Origin: an uncultured virus (IMG/VR IMGVR_UViG_3300032167_000103)
Taxonomy: Duplodnaviria > Heunggongvirae > Uroviricota > Caudoviricetes
DNA: 64,000 bases
Direction: 5' to 3' (one strand)
Virus record (IMG/VR): IMGVR_UViG_3300032167_000103
Location: 1-64,000 of that record
The notes beneath the pieces were generated by a model, which saw nothing but the letters and a program-made list of their open reading frames with translations, had not been told where the DNA came from and made no database searches. Positions 30,636 to 58,293 of this stretch are shown here, piece by piece (position 1 is the first letter of the stretch; every line of letters begins with the position of its first letter). The position numbers and the translations under genes are program-made.

Positions 30636-30637
30636 TG

Positions 30638-30670
30638 GTATGGAGAGGCTTATCATAAGCCTCTCCATAC
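30638..30670 (+). terminator. hairpin
   Basis: GTATGGAGAGGCTTA/TAAGCCTCTCCATAC stem. Confidence 0.7.
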
Positions 30671-30712
30671 TTTACTATTTTATTAATTATTCTCATTTTG
30701 GAGGGATTAAAT

Positions 30713-33019
30713 ATGCAACATTTTAAGTTAGAAAAAGATTGTGTATTGTACAAAACACAATTTGAAAAGTATATGCTTGATATATTTGGAGACCACCGTC
30801 TGGATAGATATTCTTTAGATTTAGATGGAATTTTATTTAGAATTAAATATATGACTAAGCATAAAAGAGATCTTGATAAGATTCCAGAATTACAAGAGAA
30901 ATTTACTAATATTGCAATCCAGTTAAGAAAATGCTTTGGTGAATTTCTCTTTAACTTCTTAGCTCAGATTATAACAATTCCTGAACCATTTAAACTTGAC
31001 AATATTGTTGATATTCTTGCTCATGATGTGAAGATGGATCCGAATTATGTAAAGTTTAAAATGATATTAATTTCAGATAGTAAAGAATATATTGAATATG
31101 TAGATTCAGCTTTTCCAGATAATGAAGTATTTAATATGTTTCCAAACGAATACTTTAGATTTTATACTGATTCATACAATGATGGAATTGCTAAAGCATA
31201 TCCAGAACTATTTGAAAATAAACATCAGGACAAGATTGGTGTTGGAGCTGATGGAGATGTATTCTGCCACAACTTTACTTTTCAGACAGGAGAACGTTGT
31301 TCACTGAACTGTACGTATTGTGTTCCAGATGGTACCAAAGTTACATTACCAGATTATTCAATGAAAAATATTGAAGATATCCAAGTAGGTGATAAAGTAT
31401 TGGCAGTAGATGAACATCATCCTGTTGGTAAAGAACATACATTACGAGAATCTGAAGTTACACATGTTTTCAAAAGGGAAACAAATGGTTATTTTAAGAT
31501 ATCTCATAGAGCTTTAAAAGAACCTATTTGTATTACTGGTGAGCATCCTGTAAAAACAGAGAGACGTGGATGGATACCTGTAAATATGTTAAGATCAACG
31601 GATAAAATTTTGATATCTTCAATAGATCCATATGATTTTTATTCTACGAATTTTAAAAATCCATCATTTATAATGAATAAAATCTCAAATTCATATCATT
31701 ACTATAAAACGCAATACATTGGTGGATTTAAACTTGAAAATATTAAAGAAAAATGTACAGTGTATAATTTGGAAACAACTGAACATACTTACGCTATTGG
31801 AAGATTATTAGTTCATAATTGTTATCAGTTTAATAAATCAGAAATGAGAATGAGTTTTGAAACTGCAAAGAAGTTTATTGATAATTTATTGACTGATCAA
31901 TATGGATATATTAATCAATATAATTCTCCTGCCATCATTATGGAGTTTATTGGTGGCGAACCTTTGCTTGAAATTAATCTTACAAGAAAGATTTATGAAT
32001 ATTTTCTTGATAGATGTTACGAATTAAATCATCCTTGGTTTACTCTTCATAGACTTTCAATATGTTCTAATGGTATGCAATATTTCGATAAAGAAGTTCA
32101 AGATTTTTTTAAAGAATATTCTTCACAAATTTCATTCAATATTTCCATTGATGGAAATAAAGAATTACATGATGCTTGTAGAGTTCAACCAAATGGAGAA
32201 GGAAGTTATGATATTGATATATGTGCACTGAATCATTATAATAAACATTTTACACCAGAGAGAAATTCTAAGATGACTTTGGCTCCATCTAATATTTCAT
32301 ATCTATTTGATTCAGTCGTAAACTTTATTAACAACGGAATGACAGTTATTAATATTAACTGCATTTTCGAAGAGGGTTGGAACCAAGAGACTGCACGAAT
32401 TGAATATTATCAGTTAAAGAAATTAGCTGAGTATATATTAGAGAATGATTTAGATCATCTTTATATAGCCATATTTAATGAACGTCAAGAAGACGTGATG
32501 CCTAAAGAACAGGATGGATCATTTTGTGGAGGTGCCGGTTCCATGCTTGCTATGAGACCTAATGGACAGTTTTATCCATGTATTCGTTACATGCCATCTT
32601 CTGTTGGTAATAATGTAAAAGATCTTTGTATTGGAACTGTCGATACAGGTATTCATGGACGAGAAGAAGGATCTGATATCATTAGAATGTTAGATAGAAT
32701 TACACGACGTGCACAAAACAATGACATCTGTTATGAATGTCCAATTTCAAATGATTGTGCTTCTTGTTTAGCATTAGGACATACAGTATTTGGTACTCCT
32801 AATAAGAGAACAAACTTCATCTGTATCCAAATGATTGCTGAGGCGTTAGCTAATGTATTTTACTGGAATGCATTATTAATCAAACATCCAGAATATAATC
32901 TCGATGTAAGAAAAAATAATGTTCCAGATAAATGGGCTCTCTTAGTAATAGATGAAGAAGAACTTGATTATTTGAAAAAACTTGAAGCATATGCAATGAT
33001 CATAAAGATGGAAAGATAA
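30713..33019 (+). CDS. radical SAM/SPASM peptide maturase (CXXX-repeat target type), intein-containing
   Basis: After intein removal reads CSLNCTYCYQ; EFIGGEPLL, SNG, ISIDG; SPASM region CGGAG...YPCIRY...CYECPISNDCASC...C; about 190-aa N-terminal extension. Confidence 0.88.
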   Translation: MQHFKLEKDCVLYKTQFEKYMLDIFGDHRLDRYSLDLDGILFRIKYMTKHKRDLDKIPELQEKFTNIAIQLRKCFGEFLFNFLAQIITIPEPFKLDNIVDILAHDVKMDPNYVKFKMILISDSKEYIEYVDSAFPDNEVFNMFPNEYFRFYTDSYNDGIAKAYPELFENKHQDKIGVGADGDVFCHNFTFQTGERCSLNCTYCVPDGTKVTLPDYSMKNIEDIQVGDKVLAVDEHHPVGKEHTLRESEVTHVFKRETNGYFKISHRALKEPICITGEHPVKTERRGWIPVNMLRSTDKILISSIDPYDFYSTNFKNPSFIMNKISNSYHYYKTQYIGGFKLENIKEKCTVYNLETTEHTYAIGRLLVHNCYQFNKSEMRMSFETAKKFIDNLLTDQYGYINQYNSPAIIMEFIGGEPLLEINLTRKIYEYFLDRCYELNHPWFTLHRLSICSNGMQYFDKEVQDFFKEYSSQISFNISIDGNKELHDACRVQPNGEGSYDIDICALNHYNKHFTPERNSKMTLAPSNISYLFDSVVNFINNGMTVININCIFEEGWNQETARIEYYQLKKLAEYILENDLDHLYIAIFNERQEDVMPKEQDGSFCGGAGSMLAMRPNGQFYPCIRYMPSSVGNNVKDLCIGTVDTGIHGREEGSDIIRMLDRITRRAQNNDICYECPISNDCASCLALGHTVFGTPNKRTNFICIQMIAEALANVFYWNALLIKHPEYNLDVRKNNVPDKWALLVIDEEELDYLKKLEAYAMIIKMER
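31319..31819 (+). mobile_element. 167-aa mini-intein inside the CxxxCxxC motif
   Basis: Starts CVPDGTKV...IEDIQVGDKV; block B ITGEHP; ends VYNLET...LLVHN followed by Cys+1; no endonuclease domain. Confidence 0.92.
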
Positions 33020-33025
33020 AATGAT

Positions 33026-33055
33026 ACACAGGAGAGGGATTTCCCTCTCCTGTGT
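33026..33055. terminator. bidirectional hairpin
   Basis: ACACAGGAGAGGGA/TCCCTCTCCTGTGT between convergent genes. Confidence 0.7.
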
Positions 33056-33076
33056 TTATACACTAACTTATGATAA

Positions 33077-33604
33077 TTAAGCAGTTGTATCAGGTTCAGT
33101 TGTTTCTGTACCATCTTCTGCAGGTTCTTCAGATTCATTAGAATCTTCTGCACCTGCATCGGTACCAGCGTCTTCATCTTCTGCATCCTTAGTATAAGTT
33201 ACAGTAACTTCAACGCCTTCAGCTACCATATCACCAGTCAATAAAGTCTGATCAGCAGTATAACCTACGAAACTAGGAGGTGCATACGTGTATTCACCGC
33301 CAACATTGAACATTCTTTCTACAGGATCAGGAACTGTTAGATCTTCAGGACCTTCGAATGTTACTTTAAGAGCTGCACGAGCTGCAACTACATCGATGTC
33401 ATTACCAGGACCTTCTTTTTCTTCAGATGCTTCAGCTTCAGGATCTTCCATTTTAGCTACAAGCTCAGGAACAATCTGTTTGAATTCCTCACGAGTGATC
33501 TGAATTCCAGGTACACTGTTGAAAAGATAATGCAAAGCATTAAACAATTCATTTGCTGCACCGGCAGTATCACCAGCAGCAATACATTCATTAATTTTAG
33601 CCAT
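33077..33604 (-). CDS. acidic protein with MucBP-like domain
   Basis: GGEYTYAPPSFVGYTADQ...GDM...VEVTVTYTKD; start MAKINE after AAAGGAG. Confidence 0.55.
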   Translation of the reverse strand: MAKINECIAAGDTAGAANELFNALHYLFNSVPGIQITREEFKQIVPELVAKMEDPEAEASEEKEGPGNDIDVVAARAALKVTFEGPEDLTVPDPVERMFNVGGEYTYAPPSFVGYTADQTLLTGDMVAEGVEVTVTYTKDAEDEDAGTDAGAEDSNESEEPAEDGTETTEPDTTA

Positions 33605-33733
33605 ATTAAAGACTCCTTTCATGATTTACTTTTGTTTTATCCAGTTTATTTCCCAGGATTAATTATCTGTAATTAGAAAATTATGAATGAAAACGACTAT
33701 TTAATTATTGATTTCTATCGTGGAGGTGTTAAT

Positions 33734-35983
33734 ATGAATAAAGATCTTTATTCAAATCAAGAATTCACTGAATTAAAACACCGATTAAATCAGGAAATAC
33801 AGAGAAGAAGTACATTTTCTTGGTGGGATCCGCTAACAACACCATCTGTTGGAGAAGATAAATCATCTCCAATGTCATTACCTGATATCGGTCAACGAGT
33901 TTCAGTTGATGATAAAACATATACAATCAATAATCCTTCTGAGGGATCTATTGAAAGGACTAAAAATATTCATTATCAAAATCATGGAGATAGTCCATCA
34001 GGTGATGATAGTGAATTTATTTCAACAGTTCCAAATACATCTGCAGCTAAAATGGATGCAGATGAAATGAGAAACTTTTTGGTTGGTTTATCTAAAATAA
34101 AAGATATCAATCTTTTTTATGGTAGAGATGAAATCCCAGGTCTTGCTTATAGAGATCCATCTGGAATAGAAGAAGTACTAACAAGTGCTGAAAAAGATAA
34201 ATTACATGAATATATTGTAGGTGAATATTCAAAGAATGATCCTAATAATGGAGCTAACGATCATTTAGACGGAAATTATCCTAGTAATATTCACGAAGTT
34301 CATTACGATATTGAAAATGGAATTGCTGTAATGAAATCCGGAGAATATGATGGAGAAGAATTAAACACCCATGATGGTTTAGGTCCTAATAATTTCTTTG
34401 ATGATTATGGGGCAGAACCAGGAGATGGTGATTTTCATCCTTATAACAGAGGATATACTCCACAAAGTAGACGAGATTGGAAAATACATAATAATCAACG
34501 TAAAACAGAAAAGGTTTATGTTACTGAAGGAGGAATACCAACTTCTTCTTTTGGACCAAATCCTAGAAATCCAGTCCAAGGTAAAGAATATAAATCTCGT
34601 CCAGTATTTAAAGGATCTCCAAGTACTTGTCAGGTTGCTTGTACTGGTCTATGTAGCGTTACTTGTGATGATCAATGTTCAGAATCTTGTTCTTCAACAT
34701 GTTGGAGTCGATGTGGTAATGCTTGTACTTCTTCATGTGGTAATGCTTGCACAGGTTGTAGTACTTTATGTTATACATCTTGCAAAACTAAATGTGAAAA
34801 CATTTCTGGATATGCTTGTGTAACTGCTGGAGCAAAAGCTATTAAAATAACAACATCTGGTGGCACTAATGGTGTACCTGCAAAAAATGAAATCCAAGCA
34901 GAAACATATTCATGTCAAGGATGTTCATATAGTTGTCAATTTTATCCTAATAAAAAGACAACTTGTTGGGATGCTGGATGTATGGGTAATTGTTTTATCT
35001 CTTGTAACACAGCATGTTCAACTGCCTGTACTGGTGGTTGTATTAATAATACAGCTGAAGAAGGTACTTCATATAAAACTGGTAAAGGCAGAGGATGTTC
35101 TTCTGGATGTACATTAAACTGTATTGGAAATTGTTCTGGGACATGTGAAGGACAATGTGTGACAACTTGTTGGCATGCATGTAAAGAAACATGTACTGAC
35201 AATTGTACATTCGAATGTTCTACAAATTGTGGAAGTGGTTGTGCTAGTGGATGTAAAGATGGTTGTACAGGATGTACAGGAACTTGTGAATCTTATTGTG
35301 AAGGACAAACCGATTCAATAGGATGTACAGGTTGTAGCACAAAAGGCGGTTGTACATCTACTTGTCAGCATGGCTGTAATAAAAATTGTGTTGGTATAGG
35401 ATGTAGATCAATTTGTGGTATTGAAGCTGCTGGAGCTTGTGAAGCTAATTGTAGAATCAATTGTATGAGTTCTAGTTGTTCAGCTATGTGTTCTAATCAA
35501 TGTTCAGATCAATGTACAACATGTGTCAATACCTGTGGATTTGGATGTGGGTATTGTTCTTCCGTATGTTCTTCTGGTTGTGATGCTGCTTGTGAAATCA
35601 CGTGTAGTGAGAAGTGTGAACATTCTTGTGAAAATAATTGTGTTCAGTCTTGTAGTGAAGAATGTGGCGGATGTTCTTCATTATGCTTCTCATGTGTTGG
35701 AATGTGTATTGGAGTTTGTAGTGTACATTGTGAAAATGGATGTACCAGTTGTTCAGTAATGTGCGGATGGTGGTGTGATTCTTCATGTAATCAACAATGC
35801 TTTGCAAATTGTGACACTTTCTGTATATCTGATTGCTCTGGTTCTTGTATAACATTCTTAATGAGTAAAGCTAATACTACCATTGGACCTGAAAATAACC
35901 CTACAGCTGAAGGATATAAGTGTCCTCATCCTTCTAATAGAGAAGAGGAACGTGAATCATTTATTATTAGGAAGGATGAATAA
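33734..35983 (+). CDS. giant Cys-rich CxxxC-repeat protein, putative radical SAM substrate
   Basis: About 750 aa: ~300-aa Cys-free N-terminal region, then about 89 Cys (manual count) mostly every fourth residue; ATG at 33734 after GGAGGTG. Confidence 0.85.
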   Translation: MNKDLYSNQEFTELKHRLNQEIQRRSTFSWWDPLTTPSVGEDKSSPMSLPDIGQRVSVDDKTYTINNPSEGSIERTKNIHYQNHGDSPSGDDSEFISTVPNTSAAKMDADEMRNFLVGLSKIKDINLFYGRDEIPGLAYRDPSGIEEVLTSAEKDKLHEYIVGEYSKNDPNNGANDHLDGNYPSNIHEVHYDIENGIAVMKSGEYDGEELNTHDGLGPNNFFDDYGAEPGDGDFHPYNRGYTPQSRRDWKIHNNQRKTEKVYVTEGGIPTSSFGPNPRNPVQGKEYKSRPVFKGSPSTCQVACTGLCSVTCDDQCSESCSSTCWSRCGNACTSSCGNACTGCSTLCYTSCKTKCENISGYACVTAGAKAIKITTSGGTNGVPAKNEIQAETYSCQGCSYSCQFYPNKKTTCWDAGCMGNCFISCNTACSTACTGGCINNTAEEGTSYKTGKGRGCSSGCTLNCIGNCSGTCEGQCVTTCWHACKETCTDNCTFECSTNCGSGCASGCKDGCTGCTGTCESYCEGQTDSIGCTGCSTKGGCTSTCQHGCNKNCVGIGCRSICGIEAAGACEANCRINCMSSSCSAMCSNQCSDQCTTCVNTCGFGCGYCSSVCSSGCDAACEITCSEKCEHSCENNCVQSCSEECGGCSSLCFSCVGMCIGVCSVHCENGCTSCSVMCGWWCDSSCNQQCFANCDTFCISDCSGSCITFLMSKANTTIGPENNPTAEGYKCPHPSNREEERESFIIRKDE
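34628..35848 (+). repeat. Cys-Xaa3 periodic coding repeat
   Basis: TGT/TGC recurring with a 12-nt (sometimes 9-nt) period, in blocks separated by short linkers. Confidence 0.9.
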
Positions 35984-35985
35984 AT

Positions 35986-36252
35986 ATGGGAAGAATAAGT
36001 GAAGTAAAATATATACAAGTTGATCCAATTGATTATGATGTACATGAAGCTGCTCAACACTATTTTCATTCTAATGTAATTCCGATTCATGAAATGTTTT
36101 ATGTTGGATATGAAGAATATGAATTAAAACAAAATTCTATTCGTAATAACATCACTAGAGATAATAGGGACGATAGTCTAAAATTGAATACGTCTACATT
36201 TGGGATATCGATAAAAAATAATCAAGTCATTCTGGTAATCGATAAAGCATAA
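35986..36252 (+). CDS. hypothetical protein directly downstream of the Cys-rich gene
   Basis: 88-aa ORF starting 2 nt after the upstream stop. Confidence 0.6.
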   Translation: MGRISEVKYIQVDPIDYDVHEAAQHYFHSNVIPIHEMFYVGYEEYELKQNSIRNNITRDNRDDSLKLNTSTFGISIKNNQVILVIDKA

Positions 36253-36255
36253 CAT

Positions 36256-36287
36256 TTAAGAGAGGAGCTATATAGCTCCTCTCTTAA
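36256..36287. terminator. bidirectional palindromic hairpin
   Basis: TTAAGAGAGGAGCTATATAGCTCCTCTCTTAA. Confidence 0.7.
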
Positions 36288-36293
36288 TCATCT

Positions 36294-36593
36294 TTACATC
36301 ATTTCATATACTTGAATTGAATTTCCGGAAACTTCATATCCATCATAATTCCAGACATATTGAGAAAATCTAAAATGTTCAGGAACAAACTCATTTGTGA
36401 TTCTGTATTTGATAGCTTCAATTTTAGAAGTAATCGGAATAAGAGATTCTTCAAGCTTCTCAAATTTATTAGGATCATCTGCTACCTGTGTTAATACTCT
36501 CGTACGGATTGTTTCCTTTGTTAGTAATTCAGATAATTCTCTAGCAAGTTCATCAGGAATTGTAAAATTTCCTCGTAATACTTGATTGATCAT
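36294..36593 (-). CDS. possible CXXX-repeat modification system accessory protein
   Basis: 99 aa; two long helices (ELSELLTKE...KFEKLEESL) then WNYD...IQVY; resembles the TIGR04116-type partner from memory. Confidence 0.45.
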   Translation of the reverse strand: MINQVLRGNFTIPDELARELSELLTKETIRTRVLTQVADDPNKFEKLEESLIPITSKIEAIKYRITNEFVPEHFRFSQYVWNYDGYEVSGNSIQVYEMM

Positions 36594-36614: not shown

Positions 36615-37601
36615 TCATATTAACTTCAGTAGTTCCCCTCTGAAACTTTTAATATTCTTAGTTTCTTTTACAACATCTGAAGCAGAAATATTGATAATAT
36701 TGTTACCAGCTAGAAGAGTAATACACATGAAAATCAAGTATTCAATGTTATCAACTGCAAGTGTAGAAGGAATATAATAATAATTGATCCAATCATTTAG
36801 TAAAGTTCCTAAGTGTGCAGATCTCATACGAGGAGAAGCTGTTTTAAGTAAATCAATTAATTCACTGACCTTGTGAGGATTTGCATTATCATATTCATGA
36901 ACAATTTCATTAGCTCTCATTTCATCAAGATATTTAATATGAGCTTTTGAAATTGTATTAATATTTTCTGCAGTATCATTAGATTCAAAGATATTCTCTA
37001 AGAAAAATCTATTAATCCAATATTGAATAGTATCGAATGTGATCTTATCTGCAGCTACAGAAAATTGTCTGTTAATAATTCTCGTAAAGAACTTTGTGTA
37101 AATTTCCATCAGAATTTTCTGTAGATATTGATTTCTTGCAAGATTAGCATAATTATTCTTTAATCCATTTGCAATCAATGCACCAGTTAAAAGATCTCTC
37201 AATACAGGTGCTTGCATTGATAATACACCATCTCTGGAAACCTGAATGTACTTATCAACAAACACGTATGTTACAAATCCTCGTTTTGTTTTAAGTGTAA
37301 TGAATGGAATTGCTTGTGTTAATGATAATGATTGAACGTTATTGTAGATTAAAACTACTCTTTCTTCATCAAATGCTTTCATTGCAGCTCTTGTTAGAGA
37401 ATCACTAATCTGCTTGACAGCAATATATGCTGCTTCAATATCCTCATTTGTGAGGTGTTTAGCAGTTTTAATTAGATCAATAGCTTTGTCTAATGTAGTT
37501 CTACTTTTATCCATGTGATTTATTCCACTGGATCCACTTCCATCTCCATTAAATACTTCAGAGTGTACTAATGAAGATTCCATATAACCTGTAATAGCCA
37601 T
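36615..37601 (-). CDS. hypothetical protein
   Basis: About 330-aa ORF, AAAGGAG RBS. Confidence 0.75.
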   Translation of the reverse strand: MAITGYMESSLVHSEVFNGDGSGSSGINHMDKSRTTLDKAIDLIKTAKHLTNEDIEAAYIAVKQISDSLTRAAMKAFDEERVVLIYNNVQSLSLTQAIPFITLKTKRGFVTYVFVDKYIQVSRDGVLSMQAPVLRDLLTGALIANGLKNNYANLARNQYLQKILMEIYTKFFTRIINRQFSVAADKITFDTIQYWINRFFLENIFESNDTAENINTISKAHIKYLDEMRANEIVHEYDNANPHKVSELIDLLKTASPRMRSAHLGTLLNDWINYYYIPSTLAVDNIEYLIFMCITLLAGNNIINISASDVVKETKNIKSFRGELLKLI

Positions 37602-37644
37602 AAAGTTAAACACTCCTTTCTATAATTAAGTTTCTGTCTTGACT

Positions 37645-40115: not shown

Positions 40116-43100
40116 TTATGAATAACGGAACCAGATATCACCATTCTGTCCATCGGTAGGTCTTCTATAAGAAATAATAGTATTTCTAATAGCTCTTCTT
40201 TCAAGATCAGAATGCTTTTTAACTGTTGTATATGCAGGTAATTCAATTTCTTGAACAAGTTTATCTCCATTGATGGATTCATCTTGCATTTTACTCATAG
40301 AAATAGATTTATCTGCAATCTTTTCTTCTGTTACAGATTCATTTCTAATTTTACTATTATCGATAGCATTATCTAGAATATGAACTGTATTGATCATTTC
40401 TTCATTAGCAAGTTTCTGAGCACCGATTGAAAAATCTTGAATCTTATTACCTTTGATAGAATTCATTTGAATCTTATCATCATTAATACTTTCATTTTCA
40501 ATCATTTCAGAATTAACTTTAACCCAATCAACTTTACCAGTTTCTTTATTCATAGAAATAACTGTATTTGGATCTTCAGAATCCTTGAATAAATCAGGGG
40601 TTAAAGTTTCTTTTTCAACCATTTCTCCAGTTATATTTGTCCATACTGGGTCAGTATTCGCATCAGTAACTGCAAGTACTTTATTAGGTTGCTCACTAGT
40701 GAATAATTTCTTACCTGTAACTGCACGATCGTTGATATAATCTGTAATTACAGAATCTTCTTTTAGTATTGCACCCTTTTGTTCATTATATCCATATCCA
40801 GTGATGTCAATCATTGGTTCTGATTCAGGTTCAATTTCTCCAGTAATGATACCACGAATTCTAGATACATCAATAGGAGCAATCTCGTTTTCTTTTACTT
40901 CAAAGGAACTAGAAGCATATGTAACTTCTAATGTTCCGTCAACCATGTCACTGATATCTTTATTAGAAATACTTAGTACTTCATCACCATAGTCAGTGTA
41001 CATAGATGGATTATTTGTAACTACTTGATCATTATTAAGTATAGCATACATTGTATCTTGTGAAATAGGAATAATATAAGAGTAATCAACTCCAGAACCA
41101 TTTCCACATCCACAATTACAAGACGAACCAGAATTTCCTTCAAGAGTAAGATTAATACTACCATCTTCAGTATCTTCAACAGAAACTTCACCATCGATAA
41201 TAGCACGAATTCTTTCTGCAGAAATTGGTTCTATAACAATATCACCAATTTGTGTACTTTCAGAAGATTCCTCAACAATTAATTCCTCATCAACGATAGC
41301 TTCGAGAATAGATTCATCAATACGATCAAATTCAACGTCATTATACGTAAATGATTCATTTGAACTTGCTTCAGTTTCACCTGCAAGTATACTTAGAATG
41401 GTTTCATCACTGATGTCATCTATGGTGATATTTCTAGTAACACTAGAACTTGAATCATTACCAGAATCTCCAGTACCTGGTGAACCACCGCTATTCAATC
41501 CACCATAACAAGGAATTCTTGATTGTAGATTAGAATTGAATTTTGCCAAATGCTCGATAATTCTATCAATAACCCACTGACAGTCCGGTATTAATTCACC
41601 ATCACCATTATCATCACTTGCTTGTGGTGCTGGACGAACTTCTACTTTCGGTGAACCAAGTAATTCAATACTTCTTACCAGCTTATCTCTGGTAATAGAA
41701 GCATTTTCAATCATGTCCTCGACTACTTTCATATATTGAGGAGCTGAACCGGCTTCACTTACTCCAAGAATTACATTAGATACTTCCGAAGATTTAAGTT
41801 TAGATATATCTATTAATCCATCTGGTAAAATTACTTCTCCTTCATGAGAATAATTACCCATCATAGATTTAATAGTTTTTCGCACCCAAGCAGTATCAGG
41901 AATAGAATTATCATTTGAATATTCGGCTGGTCTATCGGCAATTCGTGTATTACCATAAAATAGTAAATCGTGTTTTAATTTAGAATGACCAATAGATCCA
42001 TCTTCAATAAACTCTTCCGTGATCTGAATAAAATCAGGTACATCTCCAATATTAACAGAACCTAATACTCTGAAAGGTCTTTCACTTCTGAATATTTTTT
42101 CACCAGTAACAGACATATCTTCGATCATATCTGTTTGAATTTGCATCCATTTTATTTGATCACTATCTTTTCCGATACCAATAATTCTACTCTTTATATC
42201 AGGAATTGCTAATTTGCTTATTTCTATTGAATGATCGGCAATATGTTCATTAATAATAACCTCTGGTAGAATATGCGTAGAATCAATTATCTGCTTTGCT
42301 AAATATTTAGAGGTGATAGATTCATCTTTAATGTTAGAAATGTCAAACTTAACATCTTCTCCTAACATTTTAGAAGTAATCTTCATATATTTAGCAGGTG
42401 TATTAGCATCTTCAACAGCAAGTACCATATCAGAGATACTACTACTAAATATCTTCTCACCAGTAACGGAATAATCCTCGATGAAATCTGTAGTAAGTTT
42501 CATCCATTTTGGAGTTCTATTAATTAAATCAAAACCCAAAATAGATTTATTGATATCAGGAATTGCTAGTTTTTCTTCAGTTATGGATTCATCAATAATA
42601 GCATCAGTTCCAACAGAAGCTGTAGCCATCATTTCTCTTGTGATCTGAGAATATTGAGGGTGTCCACCATCTGGACCAACAGCTAGTACTCTATTAGGGA
42701 TTTCAGATTTAAAAATCTTTTCACTAGTTACAGAAGATTCTTCAAGAGCTAATGTAGAAACAGAATCTTTATCGAGAACTCTTTTAGATACTGATCTATT
42801 CGCTAATTTTTCTTCAGTAACTGCATTAGATTTAATATTGTGGGAATCTACAGATTCATCATCCAACATATCTGAATTAATTCTGCCCCAGTAAGCATCT
42901 CCATTAACTTCAGTAACTATTAAAGCTCTATTTTTCAATGGAGAAGAAAAAAGATGTTCTCCGCTTACTGAATGCGGAGCAATATTTTTTCCAGTAATAG
43001 TAATATTGCTGAATAACTTACGAACCCATGATGTATCAGGAATACTGTTATCATCAGATTCTAATACAGGAGATTCATTTAATTTAACATTACGCAATAC

Positions 43101-50825: not shown

Positions 50826-52499
50826 TTATTTTAGCATGTTATAATATACTCCATGCTTTTCTACTAGTTCTTGATGACTTCCTGATTCTACCACTGTACC
50901 GTTTTGGATCACATAAATTATATCACAATTTTGTATAGTTGATAATCTATGAGCGATTGTTATTATAGTCTTTCCTTCCAAGGCATCTACTGCATCTTGA
51001 ATGATAGTTTCAGATTCATTATCGAGAGCACTTGTGGCTTCGTCTAGTAGTATAATTTCCGGGTTCTTAAGAAATAATCTTGCTAAAGATATTCTCTGTT
51101 TCTGTCCACCTGATAGTTTTAAACCTCTTGGCCCAACTTCTGTGTCAAACTTCTTGTCCAATGACAATATGAATTCTAGAATATGAGCTTTGTTGCAGGC
51201 ATCTAATAATTCATTTTCAGTAGCATGAGATGAACCATACATGATATTTTCTTTAATAGTTCCAGGAAAGATTATGTTTTCCTGATGTACAGATCCAACG
51301 TGTTTTCTATAACTATCAAGTGTTATCTCGTTTAACGGAACTCCATCAATTGTTATTTCTCCACCCTTATGATCATAGAAACGATTCAGAAGTTTAAATA
51401 AAGTTGATTTTCCACCACCACTAGTTCCACAAATTCCTATTTTCTGCCCTTTCTTAATTTTCATATTAACGCCAGCTAATGTATTGTTAGAATTATCATA
51501 TGAAAATGTTACATTTTTGAGATTAATTTCATCCTTAAATTCTAACAACTCTACAGACCCATCTCTCATCAAACCAGGATATTCAATAATATTTTTATAT
51601 TCATCTTTCAATGACATGTTATCAGAAATATCAGATATAAAATCAAGTATTGCTAACATTGGATCCATGAGTTTAAATACTAGCATTATTAAACTCATTG
51701 CTTGAGCTTGATTAAGAGCTTCAAGAGAAAGCTGATAAATTGTATATCCAATTACAATAATTAATCCAACTGCTTCAACACCATCTATTGATCCATATAA
51801 TATTGAATTAATTTTTGCTTTCTTTATTTGGTTTCCGCATATTTCTTGATTTTTATTTCTTATAGAAATTCGATGTTCTTCAACTGTATTAAATGATCTA
51901 ACCTCGGCAAATCCATTAATGATGTTTTCTACTTCCTGATTCCTTTTTCTTTTGACAACTGTAAACGCTTCATCAATTTTCATATACTCTTTATAAACTT
52001 TACTGAAAATTATCATTCCTATGAAATAAATGATGATTATTGGAATTATCATATCTCCACCAATTTGATACATTGTAAACAATGTTATGATTATCGCACA
52101 GCAACGAATGATGAAAGCTCCGGTATTCATACCGATACTAGAAATCTTACTGAGAAATTCTTGAGCAGTATTAATTCGAGCAACCGAATATTTAGTAAAC
52201 ATTTTGTATTCAGCACCTAGAATTTTATCTACATATCTATTGATCAATGTAGTATACACTTGTTTGATACTAGCTGTTCGTAAATAACCAACAAGAGAAC
52301 TTGCAATTATATTCGTGATTAGTACGAATACGAGTGTGATCAAATGATTAATCCAATTTTCAATATCACCGAAAATATTGGATATCATTATCACTAAATA
52401 GTTACTGATTACCACTGTTACAAGATTACAGATAAACCAACATAACAACATCATGCAAGCTTTCTTATCTTGTAACCATTCTTTGAAAATAAATTTCAT
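50826..52499 (-). CDS. ABC exporter, fused TMD-NBD (MsbA/ABCB-like)
   Basis: About six TM helices; Walker A GTSGGGKST, LSGGQKQR signature, ILLDEATSALD, IAHRLST; no N-terminal C39 peptidase. Confidence 0.95.
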   Translation of the reverse strand: MKFIFKEWLQDKKACMMLLCWFICNLVTVVISNYLVIMISNIFGDIENWINHLITLVFVLITNIIASSLVGYLRTASIKQVYTTLINRYVDKILGAEYKMFTKYSVARINTAQEFLSKISSIGMNTGAFIIRCCAIIITLFTMYQIGGDMIIPIIIIYFIGMIIFSKVYKEYMKIDEAFTVVKRKRNQEVENIINGFAEVRSFNTVEEHRISIRNKNQEICGNQIKKAKINSILYGSIDGVEAVGLIIVIGYTIYQLSLEALNQAQAMSLIMLVFKLMDPMLAILDFISDISDNMSLKDEYKNIIEYPGLMRDGSVELLEFKDEINLKNVTFSYDNSNNTLAGVNMKIKKGQKIGICGTSGGGKSTLFKLLNRFYDHKGGEITIDGVPLNEITLDSYRKHVGSVHQENIIFPGTIKENIMYGSSHATENELLDACNKAHILEFILSLDKKFDTEVGPRGLKLSGGQKQRISLARLFLKNPEIILLDEATSALDNESETIIQDAVDALEGKTIITIAHRLSTIQNCDIIYVIQNGTVVESGSHQELVEKHGVYYNMLK

Positions 52500-52532
52500 T
52501 TTAAGCACCTTCCTTTTCTTTATTATACATTA

Positions 52533-54947: not shown

Positions 54948-55796
54948 TTATTGACGTTTAACTGGTATACTATATAAACAACTAATATGTTTCCATGATC
55001 TTTTAGTATTAATATCATAAATTAACGTTTTAGGAACATTCATAATCTCAGATATTTCCATTATTTTCACATTTGGATTTTCTAACATTTTACAAATATT
55101 ATGAATTTTATCTTCTGAATATTCATTTCTAAAATTTATCGAAGGAATATTATATTCAGAAGAAATATGTGTCCATGTTTCACCTTTTCTAATATGATAA
55201 ATAATTATAGATGAAACACCTGTTAATTCTGATATTAAAGCTGGATTACTATTAGTATTTTCTAACATTTCACATACTAATCTAATTTGTTCTTCAGTAT
55301 ACACATTTTCTGGATGTTTAATACCTTTAATGTCTAAAAGACCAGTATCTACTGCATGTTGCATATTTTCTTGAATTGTGACCCATTCTAAGTTCCCAAC
55401 CCAATTACATGTTTTAATACCATTCTTGTGATTTACAAATGGTTTATTCTCTGGATTTGGAATAAATGCTTCAGCTACTAACCTATGTATGGAACGTTTA
55501 TATGGTTTTTCTTTTAGACCATAAATATTTATCATCAGATATCCAGCATTTGTAACAGCACCTTGAATAGTTTGATTTTTAACATTTATCACAACGCCTG
55601 TATTACTAATCTTATATCCTGAATCTTTACCATCAATAATCACTGGTTTCCATACAGGATTATTCAGATCATGAATGTATTGATTTAACAATTGTATTTC
55701 TGCAATTTGTAATTCATAATCATTCTTGTTAAATAGATATTGAGAATGTTTATTTCTTTCTTCTTGTAATAATTTATCTAATTTAGATAGTTTCAT
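54948..55796 (-). CDS. intron-encoded NUMOD4/HNH homing endonuclease
   Basis: WKPV...YKISNTG; IHRLVAEAFIPNPENKPFVNHKNGIKTCNWVGNLEWVTIQENMQHA; two C-terminal helical repeats; ATG after AAGGAGGT. Confidence 0.92.
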   Translation of the reverse strand: MKLSKLDKLLQEERNKHSQYLFNKNDYELQIAEIQLLNQYIHDLNNPVWKPVIIDGKDSGYKISNTGVVINVKNQTIQGAVTNAGYLMINIYGLKEKPYKRSIHRLVAEAFIPNPENKPFVNHKNGIKTCNWVGNLEWVTIQENMQHAVDTGLLDIKGIKHPENVYTEEQIRLVCEMLENTNSNPALISELTGVSSIIIYHIRKGETWTHISSEYNIPSINFRNEYSEDKIHNICKMLENPNVKIMEISEIMNVPKTLIYDINTKRSWKHISCLYSIPVKRQ

Positions 55797-55818
55797 ATTG
55801 ATTACCTCCTTTCTATAT

Positions 55819-55828
55819 AGAATATATG
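55819..55828 (-). promoter_or_regulatory. intron-internal putative promoter CATATATTCT
   Basis: Recurrent motif just upstream of the HNH RBS. Confidence 0.5.
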
Positions 55829-56015
55829 ATTTGATTTTAGTCAATAATATACACAGTATTTTAGCTGCGGATTATCCAATCTTATAACGTTTTTACCATC
55901 CCTAACCCATTACAGTTAGTACTAACACTGTCCATTACTGGCAGCTGTGGTAGTTATAAGCTCTAAGGAACTTCCCGCAATTAAAAGGGTTTAAAGCCAA
56001 CTAGATTTGTAGTTA

Positions 56016-56722
56016 ATCGGCTTTGTTGATTTCCAATCTCTACCAGTTTTATTCGAGTTACTCTTCTCAGGTAGAGATTCATCACCAATGGCTCCAGAAG
56101 ATCTAACAGAGAAACCTTTCTCACCGGACTGTTTAAGCATCATGATATATTGATATCCAACATAATCGTCACCAATCCAAATATCCCTTCCCCACTTTGG
56201 TTTAGGAGCAAAGATATGATAAGGTTTAATAATATCACCATACTTTTCATATATCTCTAAGATAGAATCTCGTAATGACCATTCTTCATTGAAAGGTTCC
56301 CATCTTGAATATAATCCATTATTGGTGATAAGTAATCCATTTCTATCTACAGAGATACAGTCTTGAATGAAATGTTTCTTTTGATAATCTGATAAACCAT
56401 CATAAATATCTTCTAAATCTTTAGTCTGTTTAGGATTTAAGATTCGTAATATATCGAACATAAATTCTTTTTGTTCTTCTATAGTATCTAAAGTTGCTGC
56501 ATGTTTTCTAGCACGATCTAGAATAAATGTAACTGATCCTTCATACATAACCATTGGAATAGTACGATTGATAATAGCCAATGGATTAGTTATTAAATCT
56601 ACTCGTTCTCGTACTCCTTTAGCATGTTTTACACCATATTGATCAGTTGTCATTTCTGTAGTTAAATATGGCATTTCTTCATCTGGCCATATACTACATG
56701 TCACAGTCTTGTTTCCATGCCT
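56016..56722 (-). CDS. rpoB: RNAP beta (C-terminal subunit), exon 2
   Basis: RHGNKTV...EEMPY, DLITNPLAIINR, VGYQYIMMLKQ...SVRSSG. Confidence 0.9.
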
Positions 56723-57150
56723 CGGTTTCTTACACATTGATTCGCAACATCAATGCAGCAACTTAATGCTTCTTATGCTTTCACATAACGACAGTAGAAT
56801 TTCACTACTGAAGGATCTTTCGATCGTCGAGATCATATCTTTCATAGTAATTATACTATGACCGGCATTTCGATTTAAGGGATTCTCACCCACCTCTTAG
56901 ACCTTATTCAGTCCTGCTTAGGCCCTACTCCTATTGATAATATTAATTTATTAATATTATCCAAGGGATGATCGTTGAACTCATATCCTGTTTAGGATAC
57001 TTCGCTGCGTCGGTTGTCCCTATTTCTAACATTTTTACTATACCTTTGGAATTACCCATTGCCCCATAGTATATCACTATCTATGGTTAGTAGTTAGAAC
57101 TTAACAGGAGTTTCCCGCAATTAGCACGATTTTACGTCGGCATGCATTTT
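56723..57150 (-). mobile_element. group I intron 1 (428 nt, no ORF)
   Basis: P1 GUCGGU/GCCGAC with U.G at the 5' splice site; P AAUUGCGGGAAA; R GUUCAACGAUCA and S AAGAUAUGAUC; terminal G; splicing gives KIVG-RHGNK. Confidence 0.92.
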
Positions 57151-58293
57151 ACCGACTATTTTGCGGCCGACTTTGACGGTTTCTTTACTTCTAATCAGAA
57201 TCTCTACCATAATATTTGAAAATACAGAATCATTGAAAGCCCATTGAGCATCTGTATCCAAATAGTTCATAGCTTTACGTTTCCATCTATTGATTTCCTT
57301 GTCGATATTTTTGGAACCGCTTTTCAGAATTTTCTTACATACTTTATACACATCAGTGTAGAACCATCTTGCATCATTGTAATACTGAATAAGTTGTTTT
57401 GTAACCTTATTGGTTTTGATATTAGGATTATTGCAGTATACATTGATATCGATAATTTCAGAATCTTTAGGACAGTAATATTTAGCATCTGATTGATTGA
57501 TATGATGTAAAGAAATATCTCTCATGTCAGAAAACATTCTACTTTCTTTAATCTGACGAGTAGCTGCTAAAATACCATCACTGATAATATCACCTATATT
57601 CGGAAGACCTTGATATTCTCCTTCTTTACCATAGAGATTCAGAAGAATAGTATTTTCACTAATAGGTATGGTCTTTGATGTTACATTATTTGCTACCATT
57701 CTTTTTGCAAAAGATTCTGATAGAATAATGGCATCATCCTGTACAGCTGGATGTGCACCATATAGAATTCGACCATTTACACCAATTGAAGTATTTCCGT
57801 ATTCATCATAAGATGTAGTTGAATATAACATTGTACCTTCAGGAATAATTTCACCAACTTCTGCAGCATCAAGAAAATCATTCTTGTAATCGAAACCAAA
57901 ATTCTCAGTAAGATTTTCTACTTGATTTCTCTCTACTACTGTATACGAGTCATCCTGCCTGCAATATAAGAAGTATAAAGCAACGTTACATTTACCTTTT
58001 AGAAGGTTTTCATATTTCTTACAGATTGCATATACTTCATATTCCTTATCTGCTCTTTTATAGAATGAAGAATGTTCACCGGTAATATTTTCTTTACCAT
58101 CATACAGGAATGGAAACTCTGGATTATCTAATGTAAGATGTTGCGTATGATGTTTAATGTTCATCGTACTACGCATTACATTGTTACCTCCATAGAAATC
58201 ACCTTGACCTGTTAATGCTAATTTCTTTTTCCCTTTGAGCTCTTCATTTTTTCGTTGCAGTTCTTGGATGAGGTTATACTTTTCTCTAACCAT
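57151..58293 (-). CDS. rpoB: RNAP beta (C-terminal subunit), exon 1; spliced product 786 aa
   Basis: NVMRSTMN..HHTQ, GVN...QDDAIILSESFA, GLPNIGD, KVGRKIVG. Confidence 0.9.

Follow-up and report, generated by a model that had tools for sequence, protein, structure and literature searches.

What does a bacteriophage do with a radical S-adenosylmethionine (rSAM) enzyme of a peptide-maturase family, encoded close to a protein in which cysteine recurs mostly at every fourth residue? This question is raised by an uncultured virus, IMG/VR record IMGVR_UViG_3300032167_000103, of which we analysed positions 1 to 64,000 (hereafter the window, meaning this whole stretch of 64,000 nucleotides (nt), a part of a 71.5-kb viral contig that is 26% complete by CheckV estimate). 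A preliminary description of this DNA had proposed that the phage co-opted the chemistry of peptides made by ribosomes and modified after translation (RiPPs) to cross-link, or load with metal, a large and possibly virion-displayed protein. The components on which it relied are indeed present, namely an rSAM/SPASM enzyme, a Cys-rich protein with 89 Cys (the ladder protein) and two open reading frames (ORFs) of 88 and 99 amino acids (aa). Our analysis defines the families of both proteins, the anatomy of an intein in the enzyme gene, a fixed Cys architecture in the ladder protein, the co-occurrence of the two genes and their synteny with tail genes. On balance, and with restrained confidence, we favour a reading of these sequences in which intein splicing would complete the enzyme, which would dock on the N-terminal part of the ladder protein and install many thioether links, leaving a stapled module of the tail apparatus.

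By its gene content and its G+C of about 30%, the window has the hallmarks of a jumbo myovirus: the multisubunit RNA polymerase genes are split, a tail sheath is encoded, and so are many virion structural proteins. Complete relatives measure 246-292 kb. The host probably belongs to the Clostridia, to judge solely by the labels of metagenome-assembled genomes. Linkage of the two genes was counted over 12 related IMG/VR records that carry the ladder gene, five of them complete genomes of about 250-290 kb.

The enzyme, its intein and the cysteine ladder

The likely start of the enzyme is ATG 30713, which has a GGAGGG ribosome-binding site 8 nt ahead. Of the NCBIfam families it fits TIGR04115 best by far, the 'radical SAM peptide maturase, CXXX-repeat target family' (317 bits, E 2.1e-94), and it matches phrog_1802 at E 1e-43. 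PapB (128 bits, cut-off 340), CcpM (80), a QhpD-type model (68) and the SCIFF maturase (63, cut-off 425), all of them thioether or peptide maturases, come next, and TIGR04463, the family of CrpC, gives 33.6 bits against a cut-off of 525. To judge by these scores, the enzyme resembles maturases of the PapB, CteB and CrpC type without being a member of those families. The preliminary description had placed it with the CXXX-repeat maturases and had named sulfatase maturases as the grouping that would speak against its proposal. The former assignment stands: the sulfatase maturase model TIGR03942 gives 44 bits against 317 for TIGR04115, and the sulfatase-maturase reading was therefore rejected.

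In an alignment of 41 sequences the cluster cysteines C201, C205 and C375 of the CxxxCxxC motif are invariant, as are all those of the SPASM domain (C610-x12-G-x4-C628, C678-x2-C681-x5-C687-x2-C690 and C709). The AlphaFold2 (AF2) model of the orthologue P0151 (predicted local distance difference test, pLDDT, 83) matches the thioether synthase CteB (5wgg) with Z 27.3 over 345 residues and a root mean square deviation of 3.9, followed by anSME (Z 23.7) and ChlB (Z 23.5). The fold agrees with that of SPASM enzymes, and by sequence the match to PDB entry 5wgg has E 4.4e-22. Ahead of this core lies an extra domain of about 185 residues, modelled with confidence and lacking in the bacterial and small-phage enzymes. 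No family match was found for this N-terminal part, and its fold matches are only generic helical ones (Z about 6.4).

The CxxxCxxC motif is interrupted by an insert that did not figure in the list of the preliminary description. It corresponds to residues 208-374 of the long enzyme ORF and lies between CSLNCTY and CYQFNK. The insert displays the features of a class 1 intein: it starts with CVPDG, contains ITGEH (block B TxxH), ends with LLVHN and is followed by a +1 Cys. Five Hint-type Pfam models match it, all below threshold, including Hint (24.1 bits, cut-off 29.7), PT-HINT (21.6, cut-off 27.7) and Intein_splicing (17.1, cut-off 35.8). From the orthologues at two loci (L003 and L005) precisely this stretch is missing; their sequence is contiguous through CSLNCTYCYQFNK, in which CSLNCTY is followed directly by CYQFNK. 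The insert is also missing at L022 and L031, and a single high-scoring segment pair runs through it at L023, L024, L026 and L027, while a homologue of the insert occupies the same site in the orthologues at L004 and L006. Being precisely absent from some orthologues and present at the same point in others, it is therefore a canonical mini-intein without endonuclease domain. The CxxxCxxC motif of the enzyme would then be complete only after protein splicing, which would make this intein a natural case in which an enzyme is predicted to be unable to bind its iron-sulfur cluster until spliced.

A comparable situation exists in the 'intein-containing Rv2578c family radical SAM protein' (NF038136), for which residues 192-254 of the window enzyme, spanning the cluster motif and the first part of the intein, match positions 60-119 (E 2.4e-6); this suggests an intein at the equivalent place in both rSAM proteins. 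That family is unrelated to the phage enzyme (26.7 bits against a cut-off of 700), and the window intein differs in being a mini-intein of 167 aa, in a phage gene, variably present among orthologues. An orthologous rSAM gene of another phage (L033:2931-6380 in G014) encodes 1149 aa with two inteins. The first is large, has an endonuclease-like middle part and occupies the same CxxxCxxC site. The second lies immediately ahead of the first SPASM Cys (...DSNF/C...AIN/CGGGSG, slashes marking its borders). To judge from these positions, cysteines that are iron-sulfur ligands are where inteins lodge in this family of enzymes. Among 120 listed homologues of the ladder protein, ten (P0009, P0012, P0019, P0021, P0037, P0056, P0095, P0114, P0117 and P0119) reach 1223-1340 aa and contain Hint, sometimes LAGLIDADG, domains within the Cys ladder; the target gene therefore hosts inteins as well.

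The ladder gene most likely starts at ATG 33734, which is preceded by GGAGGT and yields a 749-aa product identical to the database protein P0001. It comprises an N-terminal region of about 300 aa, a ladder of 407 residues and a tail of 44. Of the 88 successive Cys-Cys spacings, 68 are exactly 4, whereas the 407 residues of the ladder, shuffled 5000 times, gave a mean of 9.1 such spacings (standard deviation 2.9, maximum 20). Ser, Thr, Gly and Asn prevail between the cysteines. No other Cys-ladder ORF occurs in the window. In the AF2 model, residues 21-330 have pLDDT 60-86 and the ladder stays below 40. Close to the N-terminus, the motif LYSNQEFTELKHRLNQEIQRRS (residues 5-26) is a predicted helix (pLDDT 69-86), and 12 of its 22 residues are identical, at the same position, to the N-terminus of a 193-aa ladder protein from the phage contig MT835573 described below (pairwise E 5e-5). 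Neither an RRxFF motif nor a signal peptide was found at the N-terminus of this phage protein.

P0001 carries the precomputed Pfam assignment PF27846, named tSAM_targ_Cxxx_rpt in the ESM Atlas, and the nearest clusters there, with scores of only 0.80 and mostly of viral origin, bear the label 'Modification target Cys-rich repeat domain-containing protein'. When all six frames were searched with TIGR04114, eight sub-threshold matches fell inside the ladder ORF (best 13.7 bits, cut-off 20), and hmmscan of the ladder protein against NCBIfam gave no match even at E 10.

The Cys pattern is strongly maintained. Among the 120 listed homologues (43-65% identity in the N-terminal region), 119 have 83-100 Cys, with 66-71 spacings of 4, 6-10 of 3 and 2-4 of 5; the sole exception, P0107, is a 449-aa fragment. 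In an alignment of 62 sequences nearly every Cys column of the ladder is invariant, and one fifth of the positions between cysteines are at least 90% conserved. The ladder is thus a fixed architecture in which each Cys has its own place, and not a sloppy repeat. At the DNA level no tandem repeat was found in the ladder beyond 18-31 nt, so a recent repeat expansion was rejected as its origin.

Ladders also occur in larger proteins. Eight of them (P0280, P0281, P0282, P0284, P0285, P0287, P0292 and P0311; 1461-1803 aa) end in C-terminal ladders of 98-163 Cys, and that of the window is therefore not the largest. Seven of these eight contain a Listeria-Bacteroides repeat domain, and in P0335 a 60-Cys ladder is joined to RHS repeats.

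Linkage of the two genes and their place among tail genes

All 12 related records, including the five complete genomes, possess a TIGR04115-type gene. In the window the ladder gene starts 0.7 kb downstream of the enzyme gene, and in nine records the rSAM gene is directly upstream of the ladder gene. In the other three (G001, G011 and G013) the distance is 62, 87 and 44 kb, respectively. A further record, the 50%-complete fragment G003, has the enzyme only. No relative lacking the two genes was found, a search with an RNA polymerase subunit having returned the same contig set only; with both genes core in the clade, their co-occurrence there could reflect common descent just as well as a functional link.

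On linkage, the question that the clade leaves open, the decision comes from independent contexts. In GenBank MT835573, an unrelated 30-kb faecal phage contig, the gene of a 193-aa ladder protein (22 Cys) stands 0.9 kb upstream of that for a TIGR04115-like enzyme of 446 aa (301 bits), among tail and tail-fibre genes; only three near-identical proteins were found as further relatives of this ladder protein. In bacteria, mostly Bacteroidales, a ladder ORF accompanies the TIGR04115-type enzyme on the same strand in 76 of 80 loci, usually just upstream. These loci were obtained by a genome-contig scan with a broader alignment, an alignment of phage rSAM sequences only having found nothing. Their targets measure 82-346 aa, with 10-74 Cys, and mostly carry signals for twin-arginine translocation (TAT). 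Bacterial targets are not, then, only the short peptides that the preliminary description had assumed. The enzyme-target pairing that it had proposed is supported by PF27846 on the identical protein, by the 12 related records and by this recurrence.

Could the two genes nevertheless be neighbours by descent only, the rSAM enzyme having another substrate and the ladder folding alone or by disulfides? The distances of 44-87 kb in three of the 12 records would fit, as would the separate transcription units of the window, with an opposite-strand gene between them, and the core status of both genes. We regard this as very improbable in view of the bacterial loci and the unrelated phage, where the same enzyme family stands beside Cys-ladder ORFs, of the lack of any second Cys-repeat ORF in the window, and of the curated models, which pair the two families by name. 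Modelling of a complex between the orthologous enzyme P0151 (604 aa) and residues 1-350 of the ladder protein P0022 scored 0.00 in two runs and speaks neither for nor against an interaction.

Two further loci deserve mention. In the complete 246-kb phage G012 (L031:3635-12943) the ladder gene is split into ORFs of 551 and 421 aa, with 52 and 78 Cys. The region upstream of it encodes additional rSAM paralogues, three in number (444, 373 and 278 aa), as well as a protein of 140 aa whose end consists of CxCxC repeats. The 6.8-kb entry MT837480.1 (L035) bears the name 'Bacteriophage sp.' but is probably bacterial DNA: over the rSAM gene it is 100% identical to a locus on a Segatella copri chromosome (L057), and it contains a full bacterial CXXX system, in which TIGR04115 and TIGR04119 accompany a target with TAT signal.

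The surroundings of the ladder gene are those of a tail module. In the window the 673-aa fibre-like gene, the rSAM gene, the ladder gene and the 88-aa ORF follow one another, and the opposite strand continues with the 99-aa ORF, a 332-aa virion protein, an exonuclease and the 1505-aa fibre. Most or all of this order is found again in nine of the 12 related records. The 673-aa gene is directly upstream of the rSAM gene in eight of the 12 ladder-gene loci; at L030 its homologue is encoded on the other strand, with 8.4 kb between it and the ladder gene, upstream of the latter. The preliminary description had called both flanking genes tail-fibre-like, which is clear for the 1505-aa gene and only weakly so for the 673-aa one. 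In all 12 records, homologues of the 673-aa or 1505-aa fibre-like genes, of both, or of the 332-aa virion-protein gene are found no more than about 10 kb from the ladder gene, and it is still beside homologues of tail-fibre or virion-protein genes in the three records whose rSAM gene is 44-87 kb away. Since the ladder gene is so constantly in the company of tail-fibre genes, its product is most likely a part of the tail or host-binding apparatus; these facts favour a structural, tail-associated role.

The ladder protein might instead be no virion part at all, being a secreted or intracellular product such as a giant RiPP-like precursor to be cleaved into cross-linked peptides, or a cross-linked effector against host or competitors. 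The enzyme family is annotated as a peptide maturase, and ladders are fused to domains of extracellular type, as seen in the Listeria-Bacteroides repeats of seven of the eight giants and in the single RHS case. In addition, the ladder protein has no homologue among known virion proteins: none was found in Pfam, and its only PHROG match, phrog_6085, of unknown function, falls on the ladder. In spite of this we judge such a product quite unlikely. The PHROGs scan, which covered the 61 ORFs of the window, names no peptidase or peptide exporter beside the system; the ladder is fixed and non-repetitive, with many conserved non-Cys positions, and does not look like an array of identical cores; and tail-fibre genes are syntenic with it throughout the 12 related records as well as in MT835573.

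Proposed thioether stapling, known systems and the alternative of metal binding

In the mechanism that we propose, the rSAM precursor would be made with its [4Fe-4S] motif CxxxCxxC split by the mini-intein, and splicing would join CSLNCTY to CYQFNK to give the active enzyme, expected at about 601 aa from the 768-aa precursor. This would probably dock via the N-terminal helix and domain of the target and via its own extra N-domain. It would then most likely work along the 88-Cys ladder, installing many intramolecular bridges from Cys sulfur to carbon (thioethers). The outcome would be a covalently stapled, perhaps stiff module resisting reductants and proteases, placed in the tail or host-binding apparatus and stabilised without oxygen-dependent disulfides in the anoxic gut. 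In favour of thioethers we count the TIGR04115 match, the CteB fold and the precedent of CrpC and CrpA considered below.

The closest relative is the bacterial CXXX-repeat system, which in NCBIfam comprises the maturase TIGR04115, the second maturase TIGR04119 (CXXX_matur) and the targets TIGR04114 and TIGR04117. It shares the enzyme family, with TIGR04115 scores of 632 bits for S. copri, 329-363 for phage orthologues and 317 for the window, and a target that has Cys at every fourth residue and is encoded on the same strand as the enzyme. Unlike the bacterial targets (82-346 aa, mostly with TAT signals), the phage target has 749 aa and a 300-aa N-domain and is devoid of signal peptide, and the phage enzyme has the extra N-domain of about 185 aa and often an intein. 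The second maturase TIGR04119, present in S. copri (235 bits), has no match above its 150-bit cut-off in the record of the window and in the five complete relatives. In five of these six phage records its sole match (27-34 bits) lies within the SPASM domain of the rSAM enzyme itself; in G012 the extra rSAM paralogues give two more, of 52 and 62 bits and likewise sub-threshold. The partner TIGR04116 (CXXX_rpt_assoc, 90 positions), which the preliminary description had named for bacterial loci, matches no ORF, neither in the 71-kb record at E <= 10 nor for the 88-aa and 99-aa ORFs. Judged by these comparisons, the phage has its own variant of the CXXX-repeat system of bacteria, one without TIGR04119, TIGR04116 and TAT signal. 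To our knowledge the bacterial system has not been characterised either, and our literature searches found no characterisation of it.

QhpD and QhpC, of quinohemoprotein amine dehydrogenase, offer a further parallel, in which an rSAM/SPASM enzyme cross-links Cys to Asp or Glu in a protein subunit that is later exported. The QhpD model TIGR03906 gives the phage enzymes 68-88 bits; the system differs in its few links and in its substrate, a small subunit of an enzyme complex, and is not viral. The substrates of PapB and CteB are short leader-dependent peptides that receive 1-6 links. PapB (freyrasin) is the closest characterised sequence family (128-155 bits) and CteB (SCIFF) the closest solved fold, aligning only from its residue 87, that is, minus its N-terminal domain. 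Both are thioether-forming SPASM enzymes (PMC12373016; PDB title).

By functional analogy, the nearest proven case is that of CrpC and CrpA. Dieter et al. (2026; PMC13692751) describe CrpC as a SPASM rSAM enzyme that installs ranthionine thioethers on the 28.8-kDa Cys-repeat protein CrpA of Methanococcus voltae, a demonstration of protein-scale thioether stapling in archaea. As proposed here for the phage, CrpC acts on a whole Cys-repeat protein and not on a short peptide; CrpA has a leader-like N-terminus and a C-terminal Cys-repeat region of low AlphaFold confidence; and docking of enzyme and substrate is thought to use whole domains (PMC13692751, discussion). In contrast with the phage pair, CrpC belongs to TIGR04463, and CrpA is a cellular protein built on ten copies of a 17-residue motif with C-X-X-Q/D (PMC13692751), whereas in the phage ladder, with its 88 Cys, the Cys period is 4 residues and the acceptor residue is not a fixed one. 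The words phage and viral do not appear in the article.

The precise nature of the proposed links can be discussed further. Asp or Glu is present in only 20 of the 68 CxxxC units, so a strict PapB-like rule of Cys with Asp/Glu cannot hold throughout the ladder. Backbone or generic groups seem more likely as link acceptors.

Alternatively, the ladder could be a metal- or Fe-S-binding module, similar to a metallothionein or a polyferredoxin, with a role in metal handling or redox; the rSAM enzyme would then make few or no cross-links, or would ready the protein to take up metal. We know of no classical ferredoxin or metallothionein motif with CxxxC spacing, which counts against such a module, and the closest enzyme families and solved structure are thioether-forming maturases. 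In addition, the ladder gene stays among tail-fibre genes. Some features are nevertheless those expected of a metal protein, first of all 89 Cys separated by small residues. TAT is the typical route of folded proteins bearing cofactors, and a TAT-like RRxFF signal is found in 67 of the 76 bacterial targets, which fits export of a cross-linked or equally of a cofactor-loaded protein. AF2 fails to fold the ladder alone. Finally, the authors of the CrpA study suspect metal binding, the cluster being up-regulated on pyrite (PMC13692751, discussion). Altogether we consider a metal-binding ladder unlikely.

Several points weigh against the stapling of a tail protein by this enzyme, beyond the ambiguity of clade co-occurrence, the lack of virion homologues, the TAT signals and the rarity of Asp and Glu already mentioned. 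The unspliced window ORF scores 317-320 bits with TIGR04115, below the curated cut-off of 350. Its match spans profile positions 14-359 only, because the intein separates positions 1-13; of the intein-free orthologues, that of L005 is above the cut-off (363 bits) and that of L003 below (329 bits). No convincing fold match emerged for the ladder protein or its N-domain, the best VIA Z being 3.0 and Foldseek against BFVD giving none at E <= 0.001. Most homologues have a variable C-terminal extension of 130-280 aa that the window protein lacks. In the INPHARED phage collection, neither blastn of the locus nor tblastn of the ladder protein gave a match, and we know of no isolated relative that has this protein.

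A bolder form of the thioether reading can be put forward as a tentative idea that we find rather doubtful: jumbo phages of anaerobic gut bacteria would staple a host-binding part with dozens, up to about 88, thioethers, using an enzyme gated by its intein. Redox-gated splicing is an idea that rests on work with other inteins. By this analogy, with an intein Cys1 and a +1 Cys, splicing in the phage enzyme could depend on reducing conditions. If true, the ladder would represent an oxygen-independent and irreversible substitute for disulfides, and it would be the first case of a virion component that owes its maturation to RiPP-type radical chemistry.

The preliminary description had presented the system as possibly undescribed. 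This holds in so far as our literature searches found nothing on a CXXX-repeat rSAM system in phages; yet the system is not wholly undescribed, as Pfam, NCBI and JGI already name both families and label phage proteins with them. What is new here is the intein in CxxxCxxC, the near-invariant Cys architecture, the co-occurrence in the clade, the synteny with tail genes and the recurrence in an unrelated phage and in bacteria.

Surroundings of the system and its possible meaning

The coordinates of the locus are given in Table 1. Three terminator-like hairpins delimit three units: in the first the rSAM gene stands by itself, the second is the MucBP-like gene on the opposite strand, and the third joins the ladder gene and the 88-aa ORF.

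Table 1. Genes and elements of the maturase and ladder locus, with their positions in the window
Feature	Position	Strand	Remarks
Upstream tail-fibre-like gene, 673 aa	28614-30635	+	weak tail-fibre PHROG matches, best phrog_35419 (E 2.3e-5)
Terminator-like hairpin	30637-30671	+	between the 673-aa fibre-like and rSAM genes; 16-pair stem, T-rich tail
rSAM/SPASM maturase gene	30713-33019	+	768 aa from ATG 30713; longest ORF from TTG 30698
N-extein	30713-31318	+	clade-specific N-terminal domain of about 185 aa, then first two Cys of CxxxCxxC (CSLNCTY); from orthologue alignment
Mini-intein, 167 aa	31319-31819	+	without endonuclease domain; inserted ahead of the third Cys of CxxxCxxC
C-extein	31820-33019	+	contains the third cluster Cys, the rSAM barrel and the SPASM domain, of which seven Cys are invariant
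Terminator-like hairpin	33026-33055	.	between the convergent rSAM and MucBP-like genes; 13-pair stem, 8 GC pairs
MucBP-like gene, 181 aa	33077-33622	-	Pfam MucBP, E 2.2e-4, 22.3 bits (cut-off 23)
Cys-ladder protein gene	33734-35983	+	749 aa from ATG 33734; longest ORF 33683-35983, 766 aa
N-terminal helix motif LYSNQEFTELKHRLNQEIQRRS	33746-33811	+	candidate recognition (leader-like) element
Cysteine ladder	34628-35848	+	407 residues, 88 Cys
88-aa ORF	35986-36252	+	starts two bases past the ladder gene stop codon
Terminator-like hairpin	36256-36287	+	ends the unit of ladder gene and 88-aa ORF; 14-pair stem
99-aa ORF	36294-36593	-	linked to the virion-protein gene 36615-37613
Virion structural protein gene, 332 aa	36615-37613	-	phrog_21032 (E 9e-14)
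Large tail-fibre gene, 1505 aa	40116-44633	-	phrog_892 (E 1.3e-33), phrog_28766 (E 1.4e-25)

The small genes around the ladder differ in their attachment to it. The 88-aa ORF is probably co-transcribed with the ladder gene and lies 3' of it in eight of the 12 related records (33-40% identity), including G001 (L025), where it is retained after the ladder gene with the rSAM gene 62 kb off. Since it follows the ladder gene even when the enzyme gene is far off, a function as helper or as assembly factor is possible; NCBIfam, Pfam, PHROGs and the ESM Atlas gave no match for it. The 99-aa ORF, which the preliminary description had put forward as a partner, was rejected as such: it travels with the neighbouring 332-aa virion-protein gene, whose homologue it adjoins in all nine loci where both were found, and a match to it, cut off by the end of L025, lies 1.1 kb from that homologue. 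The MucBP-like neighbour does exist, with a match just under the Pfam cut-off. Among the related loci examined it occurs elsewhere only at L027 (42% identity), and is an occasional insert between the enzyme and target genes rather than a conserved part of the system.

Some other features of the window can be noted. The otherwise Cys-poor 1505-aa tail fibre contains a short Cys cluster, SSCNCGCGNGSG, in the region 41021-41206. An ABC-transporter-like gene of 560 aa (50826-52508, minus strand; phrog_2392, E 3.8e-124) stands among the structural genes of this jumbo phage. Two adjacent minus-strand ORFs (55991-56737 and 57121-58293) match positions 400-608 and 25-399 of one RNA polymerase beta-type PHROG, and an HNH endonuclease gene (54948-55844, minus strand) adjoins them; no group I intron was detected by Rfam. 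In four relatives (L039-L042) the homologue of gene 3599-6412 appears as two matched pieces 0.2-1.3 kb apart, which are separate ORFs in three of the four. Neither Rfam families nor tRNAs were found in the window.

Near-identical sequences are present in metagenomes from animal gut and faeces: 11 runs contain at least half of the sampled words, and 20 metagenome rows, from 13 studies, match the window sequence. No RNA run was among the public runs listed as matching.

The claim is directly testable because the work on CrpC and CrpA supplies a ready protocol (PMC13692751). If the proposed mechanism is true, protein engineers would gain an enzyme able to place dozens of links on a defined scaffold of 400 residues. 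RiPP-type radical chemistry would then reach beyond small peptides and one archaeal protein to a large, possibly virion-borne phage protein, and we would see a way in which structures outside the cell could be stabilised by viruses of strict anaerobes in the absence of disulfides.

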